DNA of 64,000 nt, from positions 8,405-72,404 of the forward strand of contig CANQID010000004.1 in assembly GCA_947623925.1 (NCBI GenBank), written 5' to 3'. Below, in pieces: positions 3,442 to 61,723 of the stretch. Numbering within the stretch: the first letter of the stretch is position 1; each line of letters starts with the position of its first letter. Source of the stretch: an uncultured Bacilli bacterium (GTDB lineage Bacteria; Bacillota_I; Bacilli_A; RF39; UBA660). The notes below the pieces were generated by a model. That model was not told the DNA's origin. It did not search any database and was given only the letters and a program-made list of their open reading frames with translations. The position numbers were made by a program, and so were the translations under genes.

Positions 3442-5223
3442 TTATTCACAAGTTATATCTTCTTTAAGGATTATATGTGATGGATTATTTGATGAATCTT
3501 GTGTAGTACTATTTTCTAAGACAACATTTGAAGTATAATAAACATTGCCTGTATTATTTATTGATATATCATTTTCTGTACCATTTAATTTTGCTTTACA
3601 TATATAAATATCTGATTTTGAAAAATTATTCACCGCTACAAAATTTTCACTAAAAACAAAAACTCCATTTATATATATATTTCCCGTTGAAGTACTATCA
3701 TTTGTGATTCCTCTACCATTTTTATTATACACACATATACCACTTGTATTTTCTTCTTCTCCACACTTATCTGCAATAGAACCTTTTATTTTAATATTTC
3801 CAGAGTTAAAATTTACTATATCCCTAGCAAGCCACCAATCTTTAGCAGTAATGCCGTCAGTATAAATATAAACCTTACCACTAGTATCTACTATATTTAT
3901 ATCTTTAGAACTATAATTAGCTATTACATTTCCACTAGATGTATATTTTCCACCATCAATGTTTATAGTACCATTTTCATTATTTCTAATTAATGGTTCA
4001 TTCGTAGTAGAAATTGTAGAATTTTTAATATTTATAACACCACTTCCTGCATTATATACAGTATTTATACCATTGCTACTAACTTCCACATTTGAAATGT
4101 TAAATATTCCTCCTGCGTAATTATTAAAAACTGCTCTATCTTCTACTGAATTAACAATTTTTATATTTTTTATATTAAATGTTCCATTGGACATATTTAC
4201 AAATTTCTCTGCAGTAGGGCTCTCAAAAGTTCCACCATTTACATTAAAAATAGCATCAGGTGAATAATTATAAACTACATAAGCTTTTTCCGAATAAAAT
4301 TTACCCCCATTTACTGTCGTTGTTCCGCTATTACCAATTACACCTCCACCACTTTGATCAGATGTTTTTTTTATGAAATTTCCACCATTAATTACTAACT
4401 CAGCGGTTTGTAAATCATTACCTAAAAGCCACCTTGTTGTTCCCATTGTACCCGTTCCTATTTTATCATTTATTGTTAATTTACCTTTATTGCTTAAAAG
4501 TGTTTCTACTCCAGATGCAGCAGTAACTGTCTTTCCATTTAAATCTATTGCTACATCTTTTCCTTCAGGAATAGCCAAAGTATTTTCTAAATTAATATCA
4601 CTTAATAATAATATGTTATTTTTTGTACTATCTATATTGTTTATTGTTTCTTCTAGATTATTACTAAAATTACATTCTGAATTTCCTAATATGTTTTCTA
4701 CTTTTATTTTTCCATCTTCTTCTTTTATTGTTACTCCATTATTACATACTACATTTGTTCCTTCTTCTTTTTCTATACTTGTATTTGTACTAGCTCCTAT
4801 ATATACTTTTTTTACTTGTTCATTATTTTTCTTTATTATTAATGTTTTATTATTTGTATCTTTACAATAATCATTTTCTGATATACTTGACACTCCATCT
4901 ATATAATCTATTGAATATTTATTTATACATAGATTCGCACTTTCTATATCACCTTTTTTTATTGTTATACTTCCATTACTTGGTCCTGTTCCTGTATATT
5001 CTGCTTTTATGTTATTATCTAGTACACTATATAATCCATCACTTACTTCATTCATTATTAAATAATTTGATACTGCTCTTACATATCCTTCTGCACTATT
5101 TAATGCTGTACTTTTTCTTGATGATTCTATTACATTTAATAGTATTGGTGTTGTTATTAACGCTATTACTGCAAGTATTACTATTACCGCTAATAATTCA
5201 ACTAATGTAAATCCTTTTCTCAT
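3442..5223 (-). CDS. large type IV pilin-like protein with C-terminal parallel beta-helix domain (paralog 1)
   Basis: 593 aa. The N-terminus MRKGFTLVELLAVIVILAV is a class III (prepilin) signal: cleavage after G, F at +1, E at +5, then a hydrophobic helix. The C-terminal two thirds have G/N/T-rich beta-helix-like repeats (NGG.., GGT..). The first ~220 aa are near-identical to ORF 59933..61330. Confidence 0.75.
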   Translation of the reverse strand: MRKGFTLVELLAVIVILAVIALITTPILLNVIESSRKSTALNSAEGYVRAVSNYLIMNEVSDGLYSVLDNNIKAEYTGTGPSNGSITIKKGDIESANLCINKYSIDYIDGVSSISENDYCKDTNNKTLIIKKNNEQVKKVYIGASTNTSIEKEEGTNVVCNNGVTIKEEDGKIKVENILGNSECNFSNNLEETINNIDSTKNNILLLSDINLENTLAIPEGKDVAIDLNGKTVTAASGVETLLSNKGKLTINDKIGTGTMGTTRWLLGNDLQTAELVINGGNFIKKTSDQSGGGVIGNSGTTTVNGGKFYSEKAYVVYNYSPDAIFNVNGGTFESPTAEKFVNMSNGTFNIKNIKIVNSVEDRAVFNNYAGGIFNISNVEVSSNGINTVYNAGSGVINIKNSTISTTNEPLIRNNENGTINIDGGKYTSSGNVIANYSSKDINIVDTSGKVYIYTDGITAKDWWLARDIVNFNSGNIKIKGSIADKCGEEENTSGICVYNKNGRGITNDSTSTGNIYINGVFVFSENFVAVNNFSKSDIYICKAKLNGTENDISINNTGNVYYTSNVVLENSTTQDSSNNPSHIILKEDITCE

Positions 5224-5300
5224 TTACTTCCTTCTTTCTACTTTATATATATATTATGCCCCCCCCCCCATGACTTTTGTCAAGTGGGGCGTGGGCATAA
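4560..5300. repeat. ~0.74-kb duplicated segment (pilin N-terminal cassette plus promoter), copy 1
   Basis: Near-identical at the DNA level to 60670-61410. Both copies are in direct orientation. Confidence 0.7.
5253..5283 (-). promoter_or_regulatory. putative sigma-A-type promoter of pilin-like gene 1 with an 11-nt homopolymeric G tract in the spacer
   Basis: On the minus strand there is a -35 TTGACA (5278-5283), a 19-nt spacer containing G11 (plus-strand C11 at 5259-5269), and a -10 CATAAT (5253-5258). An AAGGAAG RBS follows. Confidence 0.5.
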
Positions 5301-5395
5301 TATAAAAAAAGTACAATTGTGCTGGTAAACTTAAAGTAGACAACTAGAGAGGGTATGTAGACAATTGATTATTTTATTTATAAATATACATGAAA

Positions 5396-6211
5396 TTATT
5401 TTAAATAATTATTGAAAATTGGTGGAATATCAGTTTTAAACAGATATTCTTTTTTATTCATTTTAAAACAAATATTATAAGCATGTAACATTAATCTAGG
5501 TGCATTTATTTTTGAATTATATTTTTTATCTCCTATTATTTTATGACCTATATCACTTAGATGAACTCTTATTTGATTTTTTTTACCTGTTTTTATATTT
5601 ACTTCCAATAAAGTATTTTTATTTTTCTTTAAAACTTTATATTCGGTTATTGCAAGATCTCCTTTATTAGACGAAAAAGACTTATGAAATGAGTTTTCCC
5701 TTATATATGATTTTATAACACCATTTTCTTTTTCTAACTTTCCTTCAACAACAGCATAGTATTTTCTTGTAACAATTTCATTCCAATTATTTTGTAAAAA
5801 ATTTTTTATTTTTTCACTTTTAGAAAATAATACTAAGCCAGATGTATCTTTATCTAATCTATGGACAATAAATATTTTATTATTTTTATTTACTGATTTA
5901 ACATAATTTGAAACATATCTATATAAAGTTTTCTCACTTTCTTTTGAAGTAGATATAGTAAGTAATCCACTAGGTTTATTAACAACAATTAAATCATTAT
6001 CTTCATATATTATTTCTATATCTTCATTAATTTTTTTTATAATTTCGACACAATCATTTACATTTAAAATAAAATCATATTTAGTAATTATTTTATTATT
6101 TACTTTAACCATTTTATTTATAAGCATATTTTTAACACTATTTTTTGATTTATTTATATTTTTATATAAAAACTCTAACAACTTTTCATTTTCTTTAACT
6201 ATAAATTTCAT
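5396..6211 (-). CDS. RluA-family pseudouridine synthase
   Basis: 271 aa. It carries the catalytic motif IVHRLDKDTSGLVLF. Confidence 0.8.
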   Translation of the reverse strand: MKFIVKENEKLLEFLYKNINKSKNSVKNMLINKMVKVNNKIITKYDFILNVNDCVEIIKKINEDIEIIYEDNDLIVVNKPSGLLTISTSKESEKTLYRYVSNYVKSVNKNNKIFIVHRLDKDTSGLVLFSKSEKIKNFLQNNWNEIVTRKYYAVVEGKLEKENGVIKSYIRENSFHKSFSSNKGDLAITEYKVLKKNKNTLLEVNIKTGKKNQIRVHLSDIGHKIIGDKKYNSKINAPRLMLHAYNICFKMNKKEYLFKTDIPPIFNNYLK

Positions 6212-7468: not shown

Positions 7469-8171
7469 CTATATCACTCCATCTAATTATAGAACCTGTT
7501 TTAACACTATCGATTATTTCATATATTTTTTGTGCGACTATACTTGGTTCTATCAATTCTTTTTGATTTGTTCTTTTTAATTCTTTTTCTAAATATATAG
7601 GATTCATTTCTCTAACTGATTCTGTATTCACCCAAGGTAAAAGAAGTGCGAAAATTTTTACATTTGGAAGCGCTAAAGAAGTAGTTTTTGTAAGTGAATT
7701 AAGTGCAGCCTTAGATGCACAATAATCAATATTTATATCACTATATGTATCTTCCGAATCAGTAGATGAAATATTTATAATTGTATCTACATTGTCTTTA
7801 AAAATTTTTGTAATTAGAAATGGTCCAACAACATTTGTTTCTAAAACACGCATAAATTCTTCTTTTGATTTTTCTTCTATATAATTATCACATTCTAAAA
7901 CAGCATTATTTACTAAAACATTTATTTTTTTATATTTTTTAATAACATCATTAAACATATTTTTTATATCTTCCTCATTAGTTATATCTGCTTTAATAAT
8001 ATGTGCATTTATTTTATATTTTTTTTCAATTTCCTCTTTTAATTTTAAAGCAAGATTATAACTATTATTATAGTTAATAATTACATCATAACCCCTTTTA
8101 GAAAATTCAGTTATTATAGATTTACCAATACCTTTTGCTCCACCTGTTACTAGTATTACTTTTTTTTCCAT
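7455..8171 (-). CDS. SDR-family oxidoreductase
   Basis: The Rossmann motif is VTGGAKGIGKSI and the active site is YCASKAALNSL. Confidence 0.8.
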   Translation of the reverse strand: MEKKVILVTGGAKGIGKSIITEFSKRGYDVIINYNNSYNLALKLKEEIEKKYKINAHIIKADITNEEDIKNMFNDVIKKYKKINVLVNNAVLECDNYIEEKSKEEFMRVLETNVVGPFLITKIFKDNVDTIINISSTDSEDTYSDINIDYCASKAALNSLTKTTSLALPNVKIFALLLPWVNTESVREMNPIYLEKELKRTNQKELIEPSIVAQKIYEIIDSVKTGSIIRWSDIDDRY

Positions 8172-8300
8172 AAAACCACCAATTCGATTATACTATAAAG
8201 TTTAAAATTATAATATAAATTTTTATTTTTTTTTTTGATTATTTCTTAACTATATGATATTATAAAGAAACATAGAATGTAATATAGGAATGTGATTTTT

Positions 8301-9233: not shown

Positions 9234-9510
9234 AATCATACATTAATTCAATTAATGATGCATCTTCTCCTAATTTATTAACATAATCTTTTCCAAGTTT
9301 AATTTTTAATTTTTCAAATTGTTTTATAAATTTCTCTGATGGTAATAAAAATAAATCCAATGATGTAATAATTAAGTCTTTTGCATAATATATACCATTT
9401 TCTTTTAAATATAAATATATCTTACTTATATTATCTATATCCATGCTATTAATTGTTTCTTCATCAAAATTTTCTTTTAATAATTTTATATCTAAATCAT
9501 CTAGTAACAT
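9232..9510 (-). CDS. small protein, translationally coupled to the upstream repeat protein
   Basis: 92 aa. The ATG at 9510 is preceded by GGAGG inside the 3' end of the 693-aa gene. It overlaps that gene by 14 bp. Confidence 0.5.
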   Translation of the reverse strand: MLLDDLDIKLLKENFDEETINSMDIDNISKIYLYLKENGIYYAKDLIITSLDLFLLPSEKFIKQFEKLKIKLGKDYVNKLGEDASLIELMYD

Positions 9511-11578
9511 TTTTATTTATCTCCTCCATATTATCTTTATAAGGATATTTCTTAATTAGTTCTTTTACATCAATTCCATATCTTGATTTTAATGCACCTG
9601 GTTGATACGAAAATACAGGATTTAATTTACCTTCTATTACTAAAGGTAGATTACTCTCTATTAAATAATTTATTAAAGCATAATTTTTACTTGGAGAAAA
9701 CAGCAAAAATGAGACATTTATATATTCATTTATTCCATATTCTTCAGCCATTTTAAATAATATAGGTATTTTTGAAATCATGACTTTAGCATTAGCAACA
9801 ATTGATGAAGTTAATAATTTTTCATATCTTTCATCTTTCCAATATGGCATATCAAGCAATTTAGAAATACTTTCTATATTGGCATGCGCTAATGTTTGTG
9901 ATGTGAATAACTCTGGATGCTCTTTATATTCTTGACTGTGAAGCATTTTTTGAATATCTTCTATATTCGCGTGTGCTAATGTTGTTGATGTAAATAACTC
10001 TGGGTGTTCATGATATTCTTTACTTTGAAGTATTTTTTGAATATCTTCTATATTCGCATTTGCTAATGTTTGTGATGTAAATAACTCTGGATGCTCCCTA
10101 TATTCTTGGCTGTGAAGCATTTTTTGAATGTCTTCTATATTTGTATACGATAATGTTGTTGATGTGAATAACTCTGGGTGTTCTTTATATTCTTGACTGT
10201 GAAGCATTTTTTGAATGTCTTCTATCTTCGCACGCGCTAATGTTTGTGATGTAAATAATTCTGGGTGTTCATGATATTCTTTACTTTGAAGTATTTTTTG
10301 AATATCTTCTATCTTCGCATGCGCTAATGTTTCTGATGTAAATAACTCTGGATGCTCTTTATATTCTTGACTGTGAAGCATTTTTTGAATATCTTCTATC
10401 TTTGTACGTGCTAATGTTGTTGATGTGAATAACTCTGGGTGCTCTTTATATTCTTGGCTGTGAAGCATTTTTTGAATGTCTTCTATCTTCGCATACGCTA
10501 ATGTTGTTGATGTGAATAACTCAGGATGGTCCTTATATTCTTGACTTTGAAGCATTTTTTGAATATCTTCTATATTCGCATGCGCTAATGTTTCTGATGT
10601 AAATAATTCTGGGTGCTCTTTATATTCTTGACTTTGAAGTATTTTTTGGATATCTTCTATCTTCGCATGTGCTAATGTTTGTGATGTAAATAATTCTGGA
10701 TGATCTTTATATTCTTGACTTTGAAGTATTTTTTGGATATCTTCTATCTTCGCATGTGCTAATGTTTGTGATGTGAATAACTCTGGGTGTTCATGATATT
10801 CTTTACTTTGAAGTATTTTCTGAATATCTTCTATCTTTGCATGTGCTAATGTTTGTGATGTGAATAACTCTGGATGTTCATGATATTCTTTACTTTGAAG
10901 TATTTTTTGAATATCTTCTATATTCGCATTTGCTAATGTTTGTGATGTAAATAGCTCTGGATACTCCCTATATTCTTGACTGTGAAGCATTTTTTGAATA
11001 TCTTCTATCTTCGCATGTGCTAATGTTGTTGATGTAAATAATTCCGGGTGTTCATAATATTCTTGACTGTGAAGCATCTTTTGGATGTTTTCAATATTAG
11101 TATATCCAAAGTTAATTGAATGGGAAATAGTCAAATTACCAATTTTATCAATATTTAAATTTAATTTTTCCACGTCTTTTATTATATGTTTAGGGCAAGA
11201 TAATACTGAAGTAATCTTATTTATTGCTTCAACTCCATAATTTTCAACTACATATTTGTATGTACCTATTAAACTTTCATGCTCGGTATTTAAAACATGA
11301 AGACATGTTTCAATATTAGTAAAAGATATATGTTCTTTTTTCAAAAATTCAATATTTAAACTAATATTTTCAACATTCATATATAAAATACTAGGACACT
11401 TTTCAATATTACTTGGGCTTATATTTAAATCATTTATTAAATAATTAAGTGTTTTATCAATTTCAAAAAATTCTCCTTTATCTAATATATTATTATTTTT
11501 ATTAACTAATTTATCAACAGATATATTATATTTCTCACATAATATTTTAAGATTATATTCACTTATCATGTAACCCAC
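9497..11578 (-). CDS. tandem-repeat protein with about 14 x 29-aa near-identical helical repeats; mTERF-like flanks
   Basis: 693 aa. Residues ~150-583 are 29-aa units of consensus PELFTS[QTE]TLA[HNYR]A[KN]IEDIQK[IM]L[QH]S[QK]EY[KHR]EH. The N- and C-terminal flanks look like degenerate ~30-aa helical repeats (..ISPSNIEKCPSIL.., ..LLFSPSKNYALINYL..). Confidence 0.8.
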   Translation of the reverse strand: MGYMISEYNLKILCEKYNISVDKLVNKNNNILDKGEFFEIDKTLNYLINDLNISPSNIEKCPSILYMNVENISLNIEFLKKEHISFTNIETCLHVLNTEHESLIGTYKYVVENYGVEAINKITSVLSCPKHIIKDVEKLNLNIDKIGNLTISHSINFGYTNIENIQKMLHSQEYYEHPELFTSTTLAHAKIEDIQKMLHSQEYREYPELFTSQTLANANIEDIQKILQSKEYHEHPELFTSQTLAHAKIEDIQKILQSKEYHEHPELFTSQTLAHAKIEDIQKILQSQEYKDHPELFTSQTLAHAKIEDIQKILQSQEYKEHPELFTSETLAHANIEDIQKMLQSQEYKDHPELFTSTTLAYAKIEDIQKMLHSQEYKEHPELFTSTTLARTKIEDIQKMLHSQEYKEHPELFTSETLAHAKIEDIQKILQSKEYHEHPELFTSQTLARAKIEDIQKMLHSQEYKEHPELFTSTTLSYTNIEDIQKMLHSQEYREHPELFTSQTLANANIEDIQKILQSKEYHEHPELFTSTTLAHANIEDIQKMLHSQEYKEHPELFTSQTLAHANIESISKLLDMPYWKDERYEKLLTSSIVANAKVMISKIPILFKMAEEYGINEYINVSFLLFSPSKNYALINYLIESNLPLVIEGKLNPVFSYQPGALKSRYGIDVKELIKKYPYKDNMEEINKNVTR
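9830..11131 (-). repeat. in-frame tandem 87-bp repeat array, about 14-15 units
   Basis: The 87-bp period is visible by eye on the plus strand (..cattttttgaatatcttctat..gctaatgtt..gatgt(g/a)aataactctgg..). It encodes the 29-aa repeats. Confidence 0.8.
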
Positions 11579-12360: not shown

Positions 12361-14062
12361 ATAGCGTTTCCAAAGTGGGGAGATTTATAAAACTAACCAT
12401 TATAAATAAATAAAAATGGTTAAAACCTTAAAAATGCTTTATAATTGAATTGAACATAAACAATAGAAAGCGTGGTTTTAACCTATGAAAATTATACCAT
12501 TAATAAATGAATTTACTAATACTTTTAATGAAATTTTTAAAGAAAATTTGAATCCTCTTAATTTAGAATCTAAAATTAGAACTGCTGGAGATACTTTTAC
12601 ATTATTACTATATGAAAAATTTTTAAATTATATTGATGATAAATTTAAAAATTCCAAAGAAAGAAAATCAATTTATAATATCAAAGAAACTAGAGAAAGA
12701 ACTTTAATTACTTCTGTAGGTTGTATTCATGTTAATTCTACTTCATATTATAACAAAACAACTAAAGAACGTTTTGTATTACTACGAGAAATACTTCATT
12801 TAAAACCCTATCAAAGATTAACTAATGAAGCAGAATATCAGTTAATTAAATATGCTATGGATGAAAATATGTCCCAATCTGCTCGTCTTGCTCTAAGAAA
12901 CACTCAAGTATCTCGTAGTACTGTTTCTAAAAAAATTGCTAAACTTGATGGCTCTATTATTGAAAATATTGCTAAATCTGTTAATCAACCTGATATTTTA
13001 TATATGGAGATGGATGAGATACATGCTAATCTTCAAAAAGGTGGTAATAAAATATGTCCATCTGCTATTGTTCATGAAGGTTATGAAGAAGATTTTGTTA
13101 AAAGAAAAAAACTAAAAAATATTCATTATTTTGCTTCAGCCAAATTGACTTACGAAGAATTATGGGAAGTAATGTTTGACTATGTTAATAAAAAATATAA
13201 TATTGATAAATTTAAAGTAATATTTGTTTCTGGTGATGGTGCTTCTGGTATTAAGAATTATACTAACTGTTTTCCTAATGCTAAATTTGTTCTTGATCCA
13301 TTTCATTATATTAGAAAACATTTAAGATATATTTTTAAAAGGAATACTGAATTAAAAAATAAAGCCGATGAATATATTAGAAATGATATGATAGATGACT
13401 TTAAAATATTGGTTGATAATCAAATAAAAGAATATCCTGATCAAGAAAAATATATGAAAGAACATAGAGATTACATAATAAATAATTTAGAAGGCATTAA
13501 AAATCAAAAGGATAAAGATTATAAAGTTCACTGTTCTATGGAAGGTCATGTTAATCAAGCCTTTGCTAGATATATTACTTCTTCCCCATACGGTTTTTCT
13601 GAAAGAGGATTAGAAAATAAACTTAAATTACTTGTTTATCATGCTAATAAAGTAAATTTAACTATCGAAGACTATTATAATTTAAAATATGGTACTAATT
13701 CATATGAAGATATAAATGTTAAAATTAAAAAATTGTGTAATATTAAATATGACCAGAAACTAACTTCTACCCATTCATTAGAATATAAAATAAACACAAG
13801 TTTACCAATATTTGATTCACCATCAGAAAATAACAAATTAAAAGAATTAACTTCTATTAGACAAGAAATTTATGTAATTTAAAAATAAGGTTAAGCACAA
13901 TTATGTCCTTAACCCTATACCATTATAAACATTGAATGTTGTCAAGGATCTAGATAAACTCGTTTCACTCGTCCTTGACAACGACACAAATATCTTTTAA
14001 AATGAGTTTAATTATAAAACTATTTTTTAGGAGAAAAATCTCCACACTTATTCTACACTAAC
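12361..14062 (+). mobile_element. ISLre2/UPF0236-type insertion sequence
   Basis: It carries one transposase ORF. The imperfect terminal inverted repeats have the core AAGTG(G/T)GGAGATTT (12373-12386 versus the reverse complement of 14039-14054). It is flanked by the 10-bp direct repeat ACCTTATTGG (12351-12360 and 14063-14072), a candidate target-site duplication. Confidence 0.55.
12485..13882 (+). CDS. ISLre2 (UPF0236) family transposase
   Basis: 465 aa. Family-level resemblance to clostridial UPF0236 transposases. It is the only ORF between the inverted repeats. Confidence 0.6.
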   Translation: MKIIPLINEFTNTFNEIFKENLNPLNLESKIRTAGDTFTLLLYEKFLNYIDDKFKNSKERKSIYNIKETRERTLITSVGCIHVNSTSYYNKTTKERFVLLREILHLKPYQRLTNEAEYQLIKYAMDENMSQSARLALRNTQVSRSTVSKKIAKLDGSIIENIAKSVNQPDILYMEMDEIHANLQKGGNKICPSAIVHEGYEEDFVKRKKLKNIHYFASAKLTYEELWEVMFDYVNKKYNIDKFKVIFVSGDGASGIKNYTNCFPNAKFVLDPFHYIRKHLRYIFKRNTELKNKADEYIRNDMIDDFKILVDNQIKEYPDQEKYMKEHRDYIINNLEGIKNQKDKDYKVHCSMEGHVNQAFARYITSSPYGFSERGLENKLKLLVYHANKVNLTIEDYYNLKYGTNSYEDINVKIKKLCNIKYDQKLTSTHSLEYKINTSLPIFDSPSENNKLKELTSIRQEIYVI

Positions 14063-15845
14063 ACCTTATTGGTGGTTTATCACTCTTACTGTGGCTTTTC
14101 ATGTTATTTCCAATATTAGTTATCACATTATCTATACTGACAGTTTGTAATAATGTGTAATTTTTATATATTCCATCATATATTCCATCTTCATTTTCGC
14201 CATCTATAATACCATTTATATTAACATTATATGTTTGCCCCATCTTTATATTTGAAGATGAATAAATAAATAAATTGTATTTTTTAGATGGTTTAAAAGT
14301 TATTACTTGGTTATTGTTGCTATCTGTTATATTAATTGGAGAATCACTAAAAGAATCTAATACTACTGCAATTGTATTTATTTTAGAATTTGAACTTGGT
14401 GTTTGCATCATTTCAGAAGAACCAGCACCTATTAATGTACCACCAGTTATTACAAATTCATTATCATAATCTAATACTCCATTTCCACTTGATTGAGGTC
14501 CATTTACTATAACCGTTCCACCTTTTATATAAATTGATCCATTAGAATCAAGACCATCACCTTCTGAATCTACATATATATATCCATCTTCTATTTCAAG
14601 TTTTCCAGAAGATGTGCTCATATGATTTTGACCTTTTCTACCGTTTATACTTGAAGAGTCATTACCACCTGCCACATTAATTCCATCATCAATAGAAATT
14701 ACATGAATTTTACCATTATAAATATTAATGTTTGAACTTTCCAAACCTTCATAACTTTTAGTTATATTAATATTTCCACCATATATACTTAAGTTAGTAT
14801 CAGAATGTATACCATCATCACCAGAAGTAATATCAAATTCACCATTTTTTATTTCAACTAAGTTATTGGAATGAATTGAATCATCAGAAGAATCTATATT
14901 TATGTTAGCATTTTCTATCAAAATATTAGAACCTGCTTTAATTCCCTTTGAACTAGTTGAATTAATGTTTGAATTTTCTTCGTTAAATCTTCCCCAATTA
15001 CCCCAATCACTTTTTGTACTTGAATTTATACTGCCTCCACCTGTTGTTATATTAAAATTCCCATTTTTTATCAAAACTAAATTTTCACTATCTATTCCAT
15101 CTTCTGTACTTACTATTTTAAATGTTCCATTTTCTATCGTTAAATTTCCTAAATTAGTATCTGTATTTGTAGTCTTAATTCCATCATTTTGTGATTTAAT
15201 ATCAAAATTTCCATTTTTAATATATATATAATCTTTTCCTCTTATACCATCACCAACAGAGTTTATTTTTAAATTACCATTTACTATTTTAAGTCCATCT
15301 TTTGAGGCTAATGCATCATTATAATATGATTCTATTTCTAAAGTACCATTACCATTAATTGTTAAATCTTCTTTACTAAATAGTGTTGCATTTGGTTCTT
15401 CTTCACTATCTAAAGTATAATTTGAAGTATCAGTAAGTTTATTTTTAGAATTATTAGCTAAAGTTATAACCGTTTTTTCTGAATTTTTTATAAATATTGC
15501 GCTATTATTTGAAGAAGAAACAGTAAGATTATCAAAAATTAACCTTACAGATTGTTTTGTATCAATTAAAATACTTCCATAAAAATTACCTGTTAAATAA
15601 TATGTACCACCTTCAGTAATATTAAATACTAAATTATTTAAATTCCCTTTAGTATAATTTGCAGTATTATCATTAAACTCTACTATATAAGAACTATTTT
15701 TATCAAATGTTTCTAATAAATCTTCTGTAGTTAAATCAATTTTTAAATTTTCACTATCTATTTGTTCTAATTCTTCATTCTTATTAGAACAACCTGTAAA
15801 TATTATAAGATTAATTAATAGAAAACTTACAATAAATTTTTTCAC
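14058..15845 (-). CDS. lipoprotein with Cthe_2159-type parallel beta-helix carbohydrate-binding domain
   Basis: Lipobox IIFTGC. Periodic ..NG.(F/L).I....DGI.. repeats are typical of the Cthe_2159 / carbohydrate-binding beta-helix family. The last 5 codons overlap the IS target duplication. Confidence 0.55.
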   Translation of the reverse strand: MKKFIVSFLLINLIIFTGCSNKNEELEQIDSENLKIDLTTEDLLETFDKNSSYIVEFNDNTANYTKGNLNNLVFNITEGGTYYLTGNFYGSILIDTKQSVRLIFDNLTVSSSNNSAIFIKNSEKTVITLANNSKNKLTDTSNYTLDSEEEPNATLFSKEDLTINGNGTLEIESYYNDALASKDGLKIVNGNLKINSVGDGIRGKDYIYIKNGNFDIKSQNDGIKTTNTDTNLGNLTIENGTFKIVSTEDGIDSENLVLIKNGNFNITTGGGSINSSTKSDWGNWGRFNEENSNINSTSSKGIKAGSNILIENANINIDSSDDSIHSNNLVEIKNGEFDITSGDDGIHSDTNLSIYGGNINITKSYEGLESSNINIYNGKIHVISIDDGINVAGGNDSSSINGRKGQNHMSTSSGKLEIEDGYIYVDSEGDGLDSNGSIYIKGGTVIVNGPQSSGNGVLDYDNEFVITGGTLIGAGSSEMMQTPSSNSKINTIAVVLDSFSDSPINITDSNNNQVITFKPSKKYNLFIYSSSNIKMGQTYNVNINGIIDGENEDGIYDGIYKNYTLLQTVSIDNVITNIGNNMKSHSKSDKPPIRC

Positions 15846-59932: not shown

Positions 59933-61330
59933 TTATTCACATGTAAGATTGTCATTTAAAATTATATGTGTTGGATTATTTACATCAGATTTTGTACCAT
60001 TTTTTAATATATTTTCTGAATTATAGTATATATATCCCTCACCTGCTGTTATACCAAAGTCTTTTTCATACCCAGTAATACTTCCATCACATATATTAAA
60101 AGATCCTATTCCACGCATTTCAATTCCAATATATGCAGAGCTTAATATAGTGTTGTCTTTTATTTTTATTATAGATATCCCATCATTCTTTATTCCATAA
60201 CCATATGCATCTATTGTTGTATTATAAATTTGTAATGTACCAGCACTATTATCCCAAACACAATTATCAGATATACAGTTAAAATTAGAATTTTTAATTG
60301 TTGCTTGGCCATTACCATAAATTCCAAATGCTTTTCCAGATGAAGTAACACTAACTTTTTCCAAAGTAGCAATTGAATTTCCTGACACCATTATAGGATA
60401 ACAATCTTTAACGTCGTTTCTACACTTAAGAACGGAATCATTTATAATTATATTTGAATTATCTTCAGTTATTATTCCATTATAAGTTCCACCATTTAAA
60501 ATTACATTTGCATTTTTTTGTAAATGAAAGCTTGCCCCTCGTGAAGATACTTCATCATGATTATCAAATGTAACATTAGAATTCTTTCCATTTACTTTTA
60601 AATTTCCAATTACTTCCAAAAAATACCCACTTAAATTTTTCTGATTTAAATCTATTACTACATCTTTTCCTTCTTTTATAGTCAAAGTATTTTCTAACTC
60701 TATATCACTTAATAATAATATATTATTTTTTGTATTATCTATATTATTTATTGTATCTTCCAAATTACTATTAAAATTACATTCTGAATTTCCTAATATG
60801 TTTTCTATTTTTATTTTTCCATCTTCTTCTTTTATTGTTACTCCATTATTACATACTATATTTGTTCCTTCTTCTTTTTCTATACTTGTATTTGTACTAT
60901 TTCCTATGTATACTTTCTTTACTTGTTCATTATTTTTCTTTATTATTAATGTTTTATTATTTGTATCTTTACAATAATCATTTTCTGATATACTTGACAC
61001 TCCATCTATATAATCTATTGAATATTTATTTATACATAGATTCGCACTTTCTATATCACCTTTTTTTATTGTTATACTTCCATTACTTGGTCCTGTTCCT
61101 GTATATTCTGCTTTTATGTTATTATCTAGTACACTATATAATCCATCACTTAATTCATTCATTATTAAATAGTTTGATACTGCTCTTACATATCCTTCTG
61201 CACTATTTAATGCTGTACTTTTTATTGATGATTCTATTACATTTAATAATATTGGTGTTGTTATTAACGCTAGTACTGCAAGTATTACTATTACCGCTAA
61301 TAATTCAACTAATGTAAATCCTTTTCTCAT
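59933..61330 (-). CDS. large type IV pilin-like protein with C-terminal parallel beta-helix domain (paralog 2)
   Basis: 465 aa. It has the same class III signal (MRKGFTLVELLAVIVILAV) and an N-terminal ~220 aa near-identical to ORF 3442..5223. The C-terminal domain is divergent, apart from the last ~15 aa (..NPTHIILNDNLTCE). Confidence 0.75.
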   Translation of the reverse strand: MRKGFTLVELLAVIVILAVLALITTPILLNVIESSIKSTALNSAEGYVRAVSNYLIMNELSDGLYSVLDNNIKAEYTGTGPSNGSITIKKGDIESANLCINKYSIDYIDGVSSISENDYCKDTNNKTLIIKKNNEQVKKVYIGNSTNTSIEKEEGTNIVCNNGVTIKEEDGKIKIENILGNSECNFNSNLEDTINNIDNTKNNILLLSDIELENTLTIKEGKDVVIDLNQKNLSGYFLEVIGNLKVNGKNSNVTFDNHDEVSSRGASFHLQKNANVILNGGTYNGIITEDNSNIIINDSVLKCRNDVKDCYPIMVSGNSIATLEKVSVTSSGKAFGIYGNGQATIKNSNFNCISDNCVWDNSAGTLQIYNTTIDAYGYGIKNDGISIIKIKDNTILSSAYIGIEMRGIGSFNICDGSITGYEKDFGITAGEGYIYYNSENILKNGTKSDVNNPTHIILNDNLTCE

Positions 61331-61410
61331 TTACTTCCTTCTTTCTACCTTACTTATATAATATCACACTTGACTTAACTTTTGTCAAGTAGGCGTTGAA
61401 ATAATATAAA
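60670..61410. repeat. ~0.74-kb duplicated segment (pilin N-terminal cassette plus promoter), copy 2
   Basis: Near-identical at the DNA level to 4560-5300. Confidence 0.7.
61351..61388 (-). promoter_or_regulatory. putative promoter of pilin-like gene 2 (no homopolymer tract)
   Basis: The -35 TTGACA at 61383-61388 (complement) is followed by TATTAT/GATATT -10 candidates and an AAGGAAG RBS. It is homologous to the paralog-1 promoter except that the G-tract region is replaced. Confidence 0.4.
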
Positions 61411-61416
61411 AATATA

Positions 61417-61436
61417 TAAAAAACAGCTTTAAGCTG
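61417..61436 (-). terminator. rho-independent terminator of rpmE, overlapping its stop codon
   Basis: On the minus strand the sequence is AACAGCTTAAAGCTGTT followed by TTTTTATATATTTTT. Confidence 0.6.
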
Positions 61437-61635
61437 TTCTTCCAAATTTACGATTAAATTTCTCTACTGCACCTGTTTTTTTAGTTGTTGTACTTTGTCC
61501 ACCATTAAAAGCAGGATGACATTTATTACAAACTTCTAAATGTAGTTCTTTTTTATTTGATTTTACTGTAAATGTATTCCCACATGCACAAGTAACTTTA
61601 GTATCTACATATTCAGGATGTATACCTTTTTTCAT
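61429..61635 (-). CDS. rpmE: 50S ribosomal protein L31
   Basis: 68 aa, MKKGIHPEY.., with a CxxC...C..CHP zinc ribbon. Confidence 0.9.
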   Translation of the reverse strand: MKKGIHPEYVDTKVTCACGNTFTVKSNKKELHLEVCNKCHPAFNGGQSTTTKKTGAVEKFNRKFGRTA

Positions 61636-61723
61636 ATTTTATCTCCTTCCGCCATGACAAACTTATGTCATAGAAATTTACTTACATAGTATAACAATAT
61701 TTTAATTAAAAATCAACTGTTTT

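Follow-up and report, generated by a model that had tools for sequence, protein, structure and literature searches.

Phase variation by homopolymer slippage is best documented in pathogens, among them Neisseria, Campylobacter, Helicobacter, Treponema and Mycoplasma. In Mycoplasma hyorhinis, the vlp genes encode a variable surface protein family whose members are each driven by a separate promoter, with a poly-A tract in the promoter spacer. The vlp genes belong to a low-GC, small-genome, Bacillota-related lineage and combine a conserved 5' module with a variable 3' part. In porA of Neisseria meningitidis and tp0126 of Treponema pallidum, the tract between the -35 and -10 boxes is poly-G, an arrangement that has been established experimentally; the tract is about 8-11 nt long, its length sets the spacer and thereby the level of transcription, and the optimal spacer is 17 nt (PMC7864442, drawn on here and below in excerpt). 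The paralogous surface-protein genes tprE, tprG, tprJ and tprL of T. pallidum carry promoter poly-G tracts of 7-11 nt whose length differs both among and inside isolates, with an effect on transcription; tprL transcripts start 4 nt downstream of the tract, which is permissive only at 8 or fewer G (same excerpts of PMC7864442).

Here, we describe a run of 11 G (G11) upstream of a pilin-like gene, gene 1, in a 64-kb window, by which we mean the whole stretch of DNA that was analysed. We consider it likely that this run is a slippage-prone promoter-spacer switch of gene 1, of the porA/tp0126/vlp type. The likeness to porA and tp0126, as these are described in the excerpts of PMC7864442, is that of a G homopolymer situated between the -35 and -10 boxes of a surface-protein promoter. 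Although such a mechanism is familiar, it is new in this lineage and for this class of gene, as is its apparent use across a clade, and a literature search returned nothing linking RF39 to phase variation.

The tract and the predicted promoter of gene 1

The window is composed of 34% A, 43% T, 14% C and 9% G (23% G+C). The run at 5259-5269, which reads C11 on the plus strand and G11 on the minus (coding) strand of gene 1, stands alone in the window as a G/C run of more than 5, the next longest being C5 (twice) and G4. Under a first-order Markov model, the number of C runs of 11 or more expected by chance in the window is 1.6e-4. A sequence-only reading of this DNA had pointed to an 11-C run in a low-GC genome and had placed it between TTGACA and CATAAT; both observations hold, and the sigma-70-type promoter boxes are kept in the paralogues of gene 1.

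Read along the minus strand, the promoter of gene 1 has the layout TTTTTTTATATTATGCCCACGCCCCAC-TTGACA-AAAGTCATGGGGGGGGGGG-CATAAT-ATATATATAAAGTAGAAAGAAGGAAGTAA-ATG (Table 1). The spacer, at 5277-5259, consists of AAAGTCAT followed by G11, the tract contributing 11 of its 19 nt. From CATAAT to the ATG of gene 1 (5223) there are 29 nt, within which the ribosome-binding site (RBS) lies. The G11 tract is non-coding, because an in-frame TAA immediately precedes this ATG. At 11 nt, it exceeds the approximately 8 nt from which homopolymers are hypermutable, and by computational assignment it stands between the two boxes of TTGACA-N19-CATAAT. Our promoter consensus scan missed this promoter because it allowed spacers of 16-18 nt and the gene 1 spacer has 19 nt. 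An Rfam scan of 5224-5395 returned no match, and hence no riboswitch or leader in that interval. We rejected reiterative transcription from a start site in the G run, as a -10 box is absent upstream of the tract.

The assignment of the predicted boxes follows from their conservation across paralogous promoters, beyond the consensus match alone. Gene 2, the second of the two pilin-like genes of this family in the window, has a promoter with 10 of 12 consensus matches in the scan with 16-18 nt spacers. The promoters of gene 2 and of P0003, from another sample, have the form TTGACA-AAAGTTAAG(T/A)(C/T)AAGTGT-GATATT, with a spacer of 17 nt and the -10 context TGtGATATT. P0006, a paralogue on another contig of the same metagenome-assembled genome (MAG), has the upstream region CCACTTGACAAATATCATGGTGGAGGTCATAATATAAG, in which TTGACA-aatatcatGGTGGAGGt-CATAAT has a spacer of exactly 17 nt ending in the G-rich GGTGGAGGT. 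The position of the gene 1 G11 is thus occupied by GGTGGAGGT in P0006, the -10 box CATAAT being identical, and judging by these sequences the P0006 promoter looks like an unexpanded form of the gene 1 promoter.

In a five-way promoter alignment, the -35 box and the RBS are invariant. Between TTGACA and the end of the -10 region, gene 1 has 2 bases more than three paralogous promoters, and the aligner set these 2 bases just 3' of the -10 box. With a family spacing of 17 nt and 19 nt in gene 1, G9 in gene 1 would give 17 nt back. The sequence-only reading had called the 19-nt spacer off-optimum and had described the homologous promoter of gene 59933..61330 (gene 2) as lacking the tract. The comparison agrees on both points: all three paralogous promoters stand at 17 nt, and that of gene 2 is TTGACA-N17-GATATT preceded by TG. 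In a related species from the human gut, the pilin arrays (P0020, P0045) are preceded by tract-free promoters of the form TTGACG-N18-TAAAAT, so the tract is no general feature of the pilin-like family. The motif TTGACAAAAGT, which is the -35 context of gene 1 and gene 2, also occurs about 100 nt upstream of the ATG in loci L102-L111 of a human-gut relative; its presence upstream of the G-tract cassette of that relative may reflect chance or a shared upstream element.

Table 1. Positions of the tract, promoter elements and genes in the window, and of G tracts in related loci (L numbers; positions within those loci)
Feature	Position	Strand	Description
G11 homopolymer	5259..5269	minus	Proposed hypermutable element in the promoter spacer
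Predicted -35 box TTGACA	5278..5283	minus	Kept as (C)ACTTGACAAA in the gene 2, P0006 and P0003 promoters
Predicted -10 box CATAAT	5253..5258	minus	19 nt from the -35 box
RBS GAAGGAAG	5227..5234	minus	Ends 3 nt before the ATG at 5223; the gene 2 and P0003 RBSs are the same
Imperfect 19-nt inverted repeat	5250-5268 and 5286-5304		Encloses the -35 box; arms 89% complementary, 17 nt apart
Gene 1, 593-aa pilin-like protein	3442..5223	minus	Prepilin-type N-terminus MRKGFTLVELL, pilin-like helix and beta head, long C-terminal beta-solenoid
Gene 2, 465-aa paralogue	59933..61330	minus	First ~660 nt 90-100% identical to gene 1 in blocks of 60 columns, C-terminal part divergent
Gene 2 promoter TTGACA-N17-(TG)GATATT	61360..61388	minus	No tract; internal reference for family spacing
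L085, TTGACT-tttacgtct-G11-TATGAT	4533-4589		29 nt before the ATG of a 203-aa signal-peptide protein
L059, TTGACA-ttc-G8-tacat-TAAAAT	10236-10243		16-nt spacer; 503-aa protein with SipW-type signal peptide (TIGR04088)
L073, G10 abutting TATAAA	6634-6643		725-aa homologue of the L059 protein
L072, G9	8170-8270		Within the leader of a pilin-like ORF; frame broken

The pilin-like proteins and their surroundings

The gene 1 protein matches PF07963 (26 bits; cut-off 21.2) and TIGR02532 (29.3 bits; cut-off 16.3), and it has the G-F-T-L-x-E cleavage/methylation motif followed by a hydrophobic helix that characterizes type IV pilins and pseudopilins. An AlphaFold model built on 35 homologues (pLDDT 87.5, pTM 0.79) consists of a helix at residues 7-57, a pilin-like beta-sheet head and then a long all-beta solenoid. 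A Foldseek search of this model against the PDB gave no significant match (best E above 0.05); the best of these non-significant matches were right-handed beta-helix adhesins, lyases and tailspikes. Among the window ORFs scanned, we found no prepilin peptidase and no pilus/Com assembly ATPase or platform protein. The gene 1 product is putatively surface-exposed, and three computational features, namely the prepilin motif, the predicted fold and membership in a family with variable C-termini, mark it as a putative surface or host-interaction target.

A 5' module is common to gene 1 (4528-5236) and gene 2 (60634-61343). It comprises the RBS and about 660 nt of coding sequence, over which each 60-column block is 90-100% identical; beyond it, in the C-terminal domains, the two genes diverge. 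Their promoter cores are less alike, with 44 of 60 aligned columns matching. Two paralogues found in other samples, P0003 and P0004, agree with gene 1 at about 97% from 5257, just downstream of the tract. This pattern in the sequences suggests that the N-terminal module has been spread by gene conversion or cassette shuffling. A database search with the gene 1 protein returned an identical copy and three paralogues in one NCBI MAG, GCA_947629815.1, along with about 100 homologues at 30-60% identity, most of them from gut metagenomes; exact-protein look-ups of gene 1 and of the paralogue P0002 returned no record. The neighbours of gene 1 are an RluD-like pseudouridine synthase (5396-6211), an MGL-like enzyme, ECF-type ABC ATPases and TruA, and because these flanking genes are housekeeping genes, we take the locus to be chromosomal.

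Several other features of the window were observed. ORF 9497-11578 (minus, 693 aa) contains, at 9747-11177, at least 14 tandem 87-nt units encoding 29-aa repeats that are 68-87% identical, and one end of a 5128-nt contig from another sample (L001/L100) falls inside this array. An Rfam L31-Firmicutes ribosomal-protein leader (RF03156, 34.7 bits) at 61643-61673 (minus) lies upstream of a 68-aa rpmE-like ORF (61429-61635), whose terminator at 61442-61418 comes directly before the gene 2 promoter. The opposite strand carries a gene for a UPF0236-family protein where the local GC skew is near zero, the rest of the window having negative skew; this gene adjoins one whose 595-aa product has a Cthe_2159 carbohydrate-binding beta-helix domain (12485-13882 plus, 14058-15845 minus).

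Tract length at the locus and G tracts in related gut Bacilli

One other assembly of the window locus was found, a 5128-nt contig in ENA ERZ27249187 that extends 60 nt into gene 1 and also has G11. Over 4882 nt it matches the window at 100% identity and therefore represents the same clone and no independent strain. The length seen at the window locus is G11 in two of two assemblies, both of one clone. Exact-protein look-ups with the neighbouring RluD-like and MGL proteins, from which this contig came, returned a single clone, 100% identical to the window. A variable-gap pattern scan of JGI metagenomes for the gene 1 promoter gave 0 matches, and a scan of species-representative genome contigs with the gene 1 protein gave no relative. 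Among GTDB species-representative genomes, the best MGL match was 77% identical, and the window species was absent from the matches.

For comparison, we gathered 80 loci (885 kb, about 25% G+C) by means of the neighbouring MGL protein. Their sources are uncultured gut Bacilli related to the window's organism, variously labelled Bacilli, Tenericutes, Mollicutes or Erysipelotrichaceae, whose hosts include rabbit ('Lapin'), Hadza and ruminants and whose closed representatives measure 1.3-1.7 Mb. Only five G/C runs of 7 or more occur in the 885 kb. Of these, the four that reach 8 or more are all found either immediately 5' of a gene for a secreted or surface protein or within such a gene's leader, and in each the sense strand carries the G (Table 1). 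The likeness of the L073 protein to proteins with a SipW-type signal peptide was judged by eye, that of L059 by TIGR04088.

At L072, the tract is a candidate for translational phase variation of a pilin-like gene, as far as its reading frame can tell: either G8 or G11 would restore an ORF of more than 320 aa running into GFTLIELL. In P0212, a database protein 93% identical to L072, the equivalent position is read through as W-G-G-G-R, and the database protein P0214 is called only from downstream of the GFTLIELL-type motif.

Small proteins of about 130-340 aa make up the large family to which the L085 protein belongs. Its members, mostly found on short contigs, are conserved over some 60 aa at the N-terminus and variable at the C-terminus. 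The cassette design TTGAyT-N9-G(9-12)-TATrAT is common to L085, P0139 and P0136, and a 174-aa neighbour likewise has G10 directly upstream. The P0139 cassette, CTTGACT-tttacgtct-G(n)-TATGAT, was found on 10 contigs from different samples, with G10 in seven, G11 in two and G9 in one; together with L085 and 4 JGI contigs, the 15 instances comprise two with G9, 10 with G10 and three with G11. The P0136 cassette, cTTGATT-tttacgcct-G(n)-TATAAT, was also found on 10 contigs (four with G11, four with G10, one with G9 and one with G12). Counted over 25 metagenome contigs, the two cassettes together range from G9 to G12. Two alignments, one of 885 columns from 10 samples and one of 800 columns from 8 samples, have indel columns in the G tract and nowhere else; A/T runs of 7-8 are invariant in the same alignments, and substitutions occupy 13 columns and 1 column, respectively.

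The P0139 and P0136 instances have spacers of 18-21 nt, with modes of 19-20 nt, and 17 nt occurs in no relative instance. This could mean that the majority of copies are switched off in the majority of populations, or else that the optimum or the hexamers differ from those assumed. The modal spacers might mean that the geometry of the G tract shifts the optimum, or that the default in vivo is off. Several of the relatives' assemblies have Illumina coverage of only 2-6x, and because long G runs are prone to Illumina errors, some of the length variation of ±1 could be technical. Contigs often end at the tract, and L101 and L125 start inside it. In L102-L125, from the human-gut relative, copies of the family often adjoin transposase fragments (PDDEXK_2, rve, HTH_Tnp_1).

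A candidate promoter-spacer switch and its alternatives

If gene 1 is switched as we propose, gain or loss of G during replication would alter how far apart the -35 and -10 boxes stand, with G9 giving 17 nt, G10 giving 18 nt and the assembled G11 giving 19 nt. The change in spacer would move gene 1 transcription up or down in a heritable yet reversible manner, and the product switched would be a surface-exposed pilin-like beta-solenoid protein. The assembled 19-nt state would be low or off, a prediction made from general knowledge of sigma-70 promoters and by analogy with tp0126 and porA as described in the excerpts of PMC7864442. We infer both that slippage takes place at the window locus and that it affects transcription there. 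Because the paralogues share an N-terminal module of about 220 aa and have variable C-terminal domains, a switch would alter the surface variant that is displayed. The sequence-only reading had offered such a switch as a candidate; it now draws support from the G8-G12 tracts of relatives, which stand in the same promoter position before surface-protein genes and differ in length between samples within constant flanks.

Alternatively, a G-rich spacer may have drifted neutrally to a homopolymer, gaining 2 nt and leaving a permanently weak promoter that undergoes no adaptive switching; gene 1 may then be heading for silencing. Such decay would fit the observation of G11 alone at the window locus, the 19-nt spacer of gene 1 in a family with 17 nt and the lack of a 17-nt state in any relative. 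However, gene 1 keeps an intact ORF of 593 aa whose product models with high confidence, and a run of G11 is mutable regardless of its origin. The same design also recurs independently before unrelated surface-protein families in several species, held at G8 to G12, which is hard to account for without selection for the tract. We regard neutral drift as unlikely. An artefact of sequencing or assembly, for instance the poly-G produced by two-colour Illumina chemistry, is a scarcely credible source of the run. Artefacts of this kind exist, and the related contigs L101 and L125 break at or in such tracts, but the gene 1 tract lies inside a contig of about 80 kb between flanks homologous to paralogous promoters, it is reproduced in the second assembly, and different studies, with many independent assemblies made by SPAdes and MEGAHIT, show this architecture again.

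The inverted repeat around the -35 box invites other explanations. One of its arms holds the G tract and the -10 box (GGGGGGGGGGGCATAATATA), and the other, TATATTATGCCCACGCCCC, lies just upstream of the -35 box. The RNA fold of the repeat region has an energy of -41.6 kcal/mol (z = -6.2). The G run could accordingly be the 3' arm of a GC-rich hairpin (TATATTATGCCCACGCCCC...GGGGGGGGGGGCATAATATA) that terminates or insulates read-through from the pseudouridine synthase gene or stabilises the 3' end of its mRNA; no canonical terminator follows that gene, whereas one precedes gene 2. We think this improbable as the explanation of the tract, although a hairpin role could coexist with the switch. 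The stem lacks a U tract, which leaves the terminator scan empty, and the hairpin energy of about -33 kcal/mol is unchanged from G9 to G13, so slippage is neither needed nor excluded by it. The relatives' tracts have no complementary C-rich arm, and hairpin formation cannot therefore be the general function of the tracts. The dyad symmetry around the -35 box of gene 1 could also mark a palindrome, centred on TTGAC-AAAA-GTCA and including the G/C segments, that serves as the operator of a dimeric regulator, with control exerted by a protein and not by slippage. Gene 2 has a dyad too, but a different one (ACTTGAC-N9-GTCAAGT); neither half-sites nor spacing are kept between the paralogues, no regulator gene is adjacent, and an operator leaves both the pure homopolymer and its recurrence in relatives unaccounted for. 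We consider it very unlikely.

The repeat does not qualify as a mobile or REP-like element, an intrinsic terminator or an inverton. It occurs as a single copy in the window and is absent from the relatives' cassettes, and its uniqueness in the window speaks against a mobile-element or REP-like origin. For an intrinsic terminator, the stem is present, but the tail is UAUAUAUAUAAAG, with no U tract, and the loop is 16-17 nt. For an inverton, only 17 nt separate the arms, the enclosed sequence is near-palindromic and no recombinase gene is adjacent. The repeat may insulate the promoter from read-through of the upstream gene, and it is compatible with the proposed promoter-spacer switch.

Beyond gene 1, the tracts in relatives raise the prospect of a clade-wide poly-G 'phasome' in small-genome, low-GC gut Bacilli represented by rabbit, human (including Hadza) and ruminant MAGs, in which G8-G12 switches would control several unrelated families of surface proteins. 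We hold the case for and against this proposal to be evenly balanced. The families would comprise pilin-like beta-solenoid proteins, with gene 1 as one member, proteins with SipW-type signal peptides, and small proteins with conserved N-terminal and variable C-terminal parts. The tracts would lie in promoter spacers or, at least once, in a coding leader, in a cassette layout like that of the Mycoplasma variable surface proteins. If this is true, single consensus MAG sequences mask heterogeneity relevant to expression, assemblies break at such loci, and these organisms vary their own surface within the host. The pilin-like beta-solenoid proteins would then be flagged as probable host- or phage-exposed structures.

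Set beside the described systems, the gene 1 locus differs from porA and tp0126 in its host, an uncultured low-GC member of the gut Bacilli as opposed to proteobacterial and spirochaetal pathogens, and in its product, a pilin-like beta-solenoid protein as opposed to a porin and an OmpW homologue. Its assembled spacer is 19 nt, compared to the optimum of 17 nt given for porA and tp0126 in the excerpts of PMC7864442. The tract as an arm of a 19-nt inverted repeat is a feature of gene 1 that these excerpts do not mention for either gene. With tprE, tprG, tprJ and tprL, as described in the same source, the locus shares a poly-G tract upstream of paralogous surface-protein genes; in gene 1, however, the tract is upstream of a recognisable -10 box, whereas the start of tprL is downstream of the tract. 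The intragenic poly-G loci of Campylobacter, Neisseria and Helicobacter are alike in homopolymer class and in their association with surface structures, and the G9 in the pilin-like leader of L072 resembles them. The gene 1 tract lies outside the ORF, so frameshifting cannot be its mode, unlike at those loci. The likeness to vlp lies in the conserved 5' module and variable 3' part, which are found in gene 1 and gene 2 as well as in the small-protein family of the relatives. In contrast to vlp, the tract is poly-G in a 23%-GC genome and not poly-A, it is present in only one of the two window paralogues, and the proteins are not lipoproteins. Taken together, the evidence suggests that the same device controls surface proteins in abundant uncultured commensal gut Bacilli.
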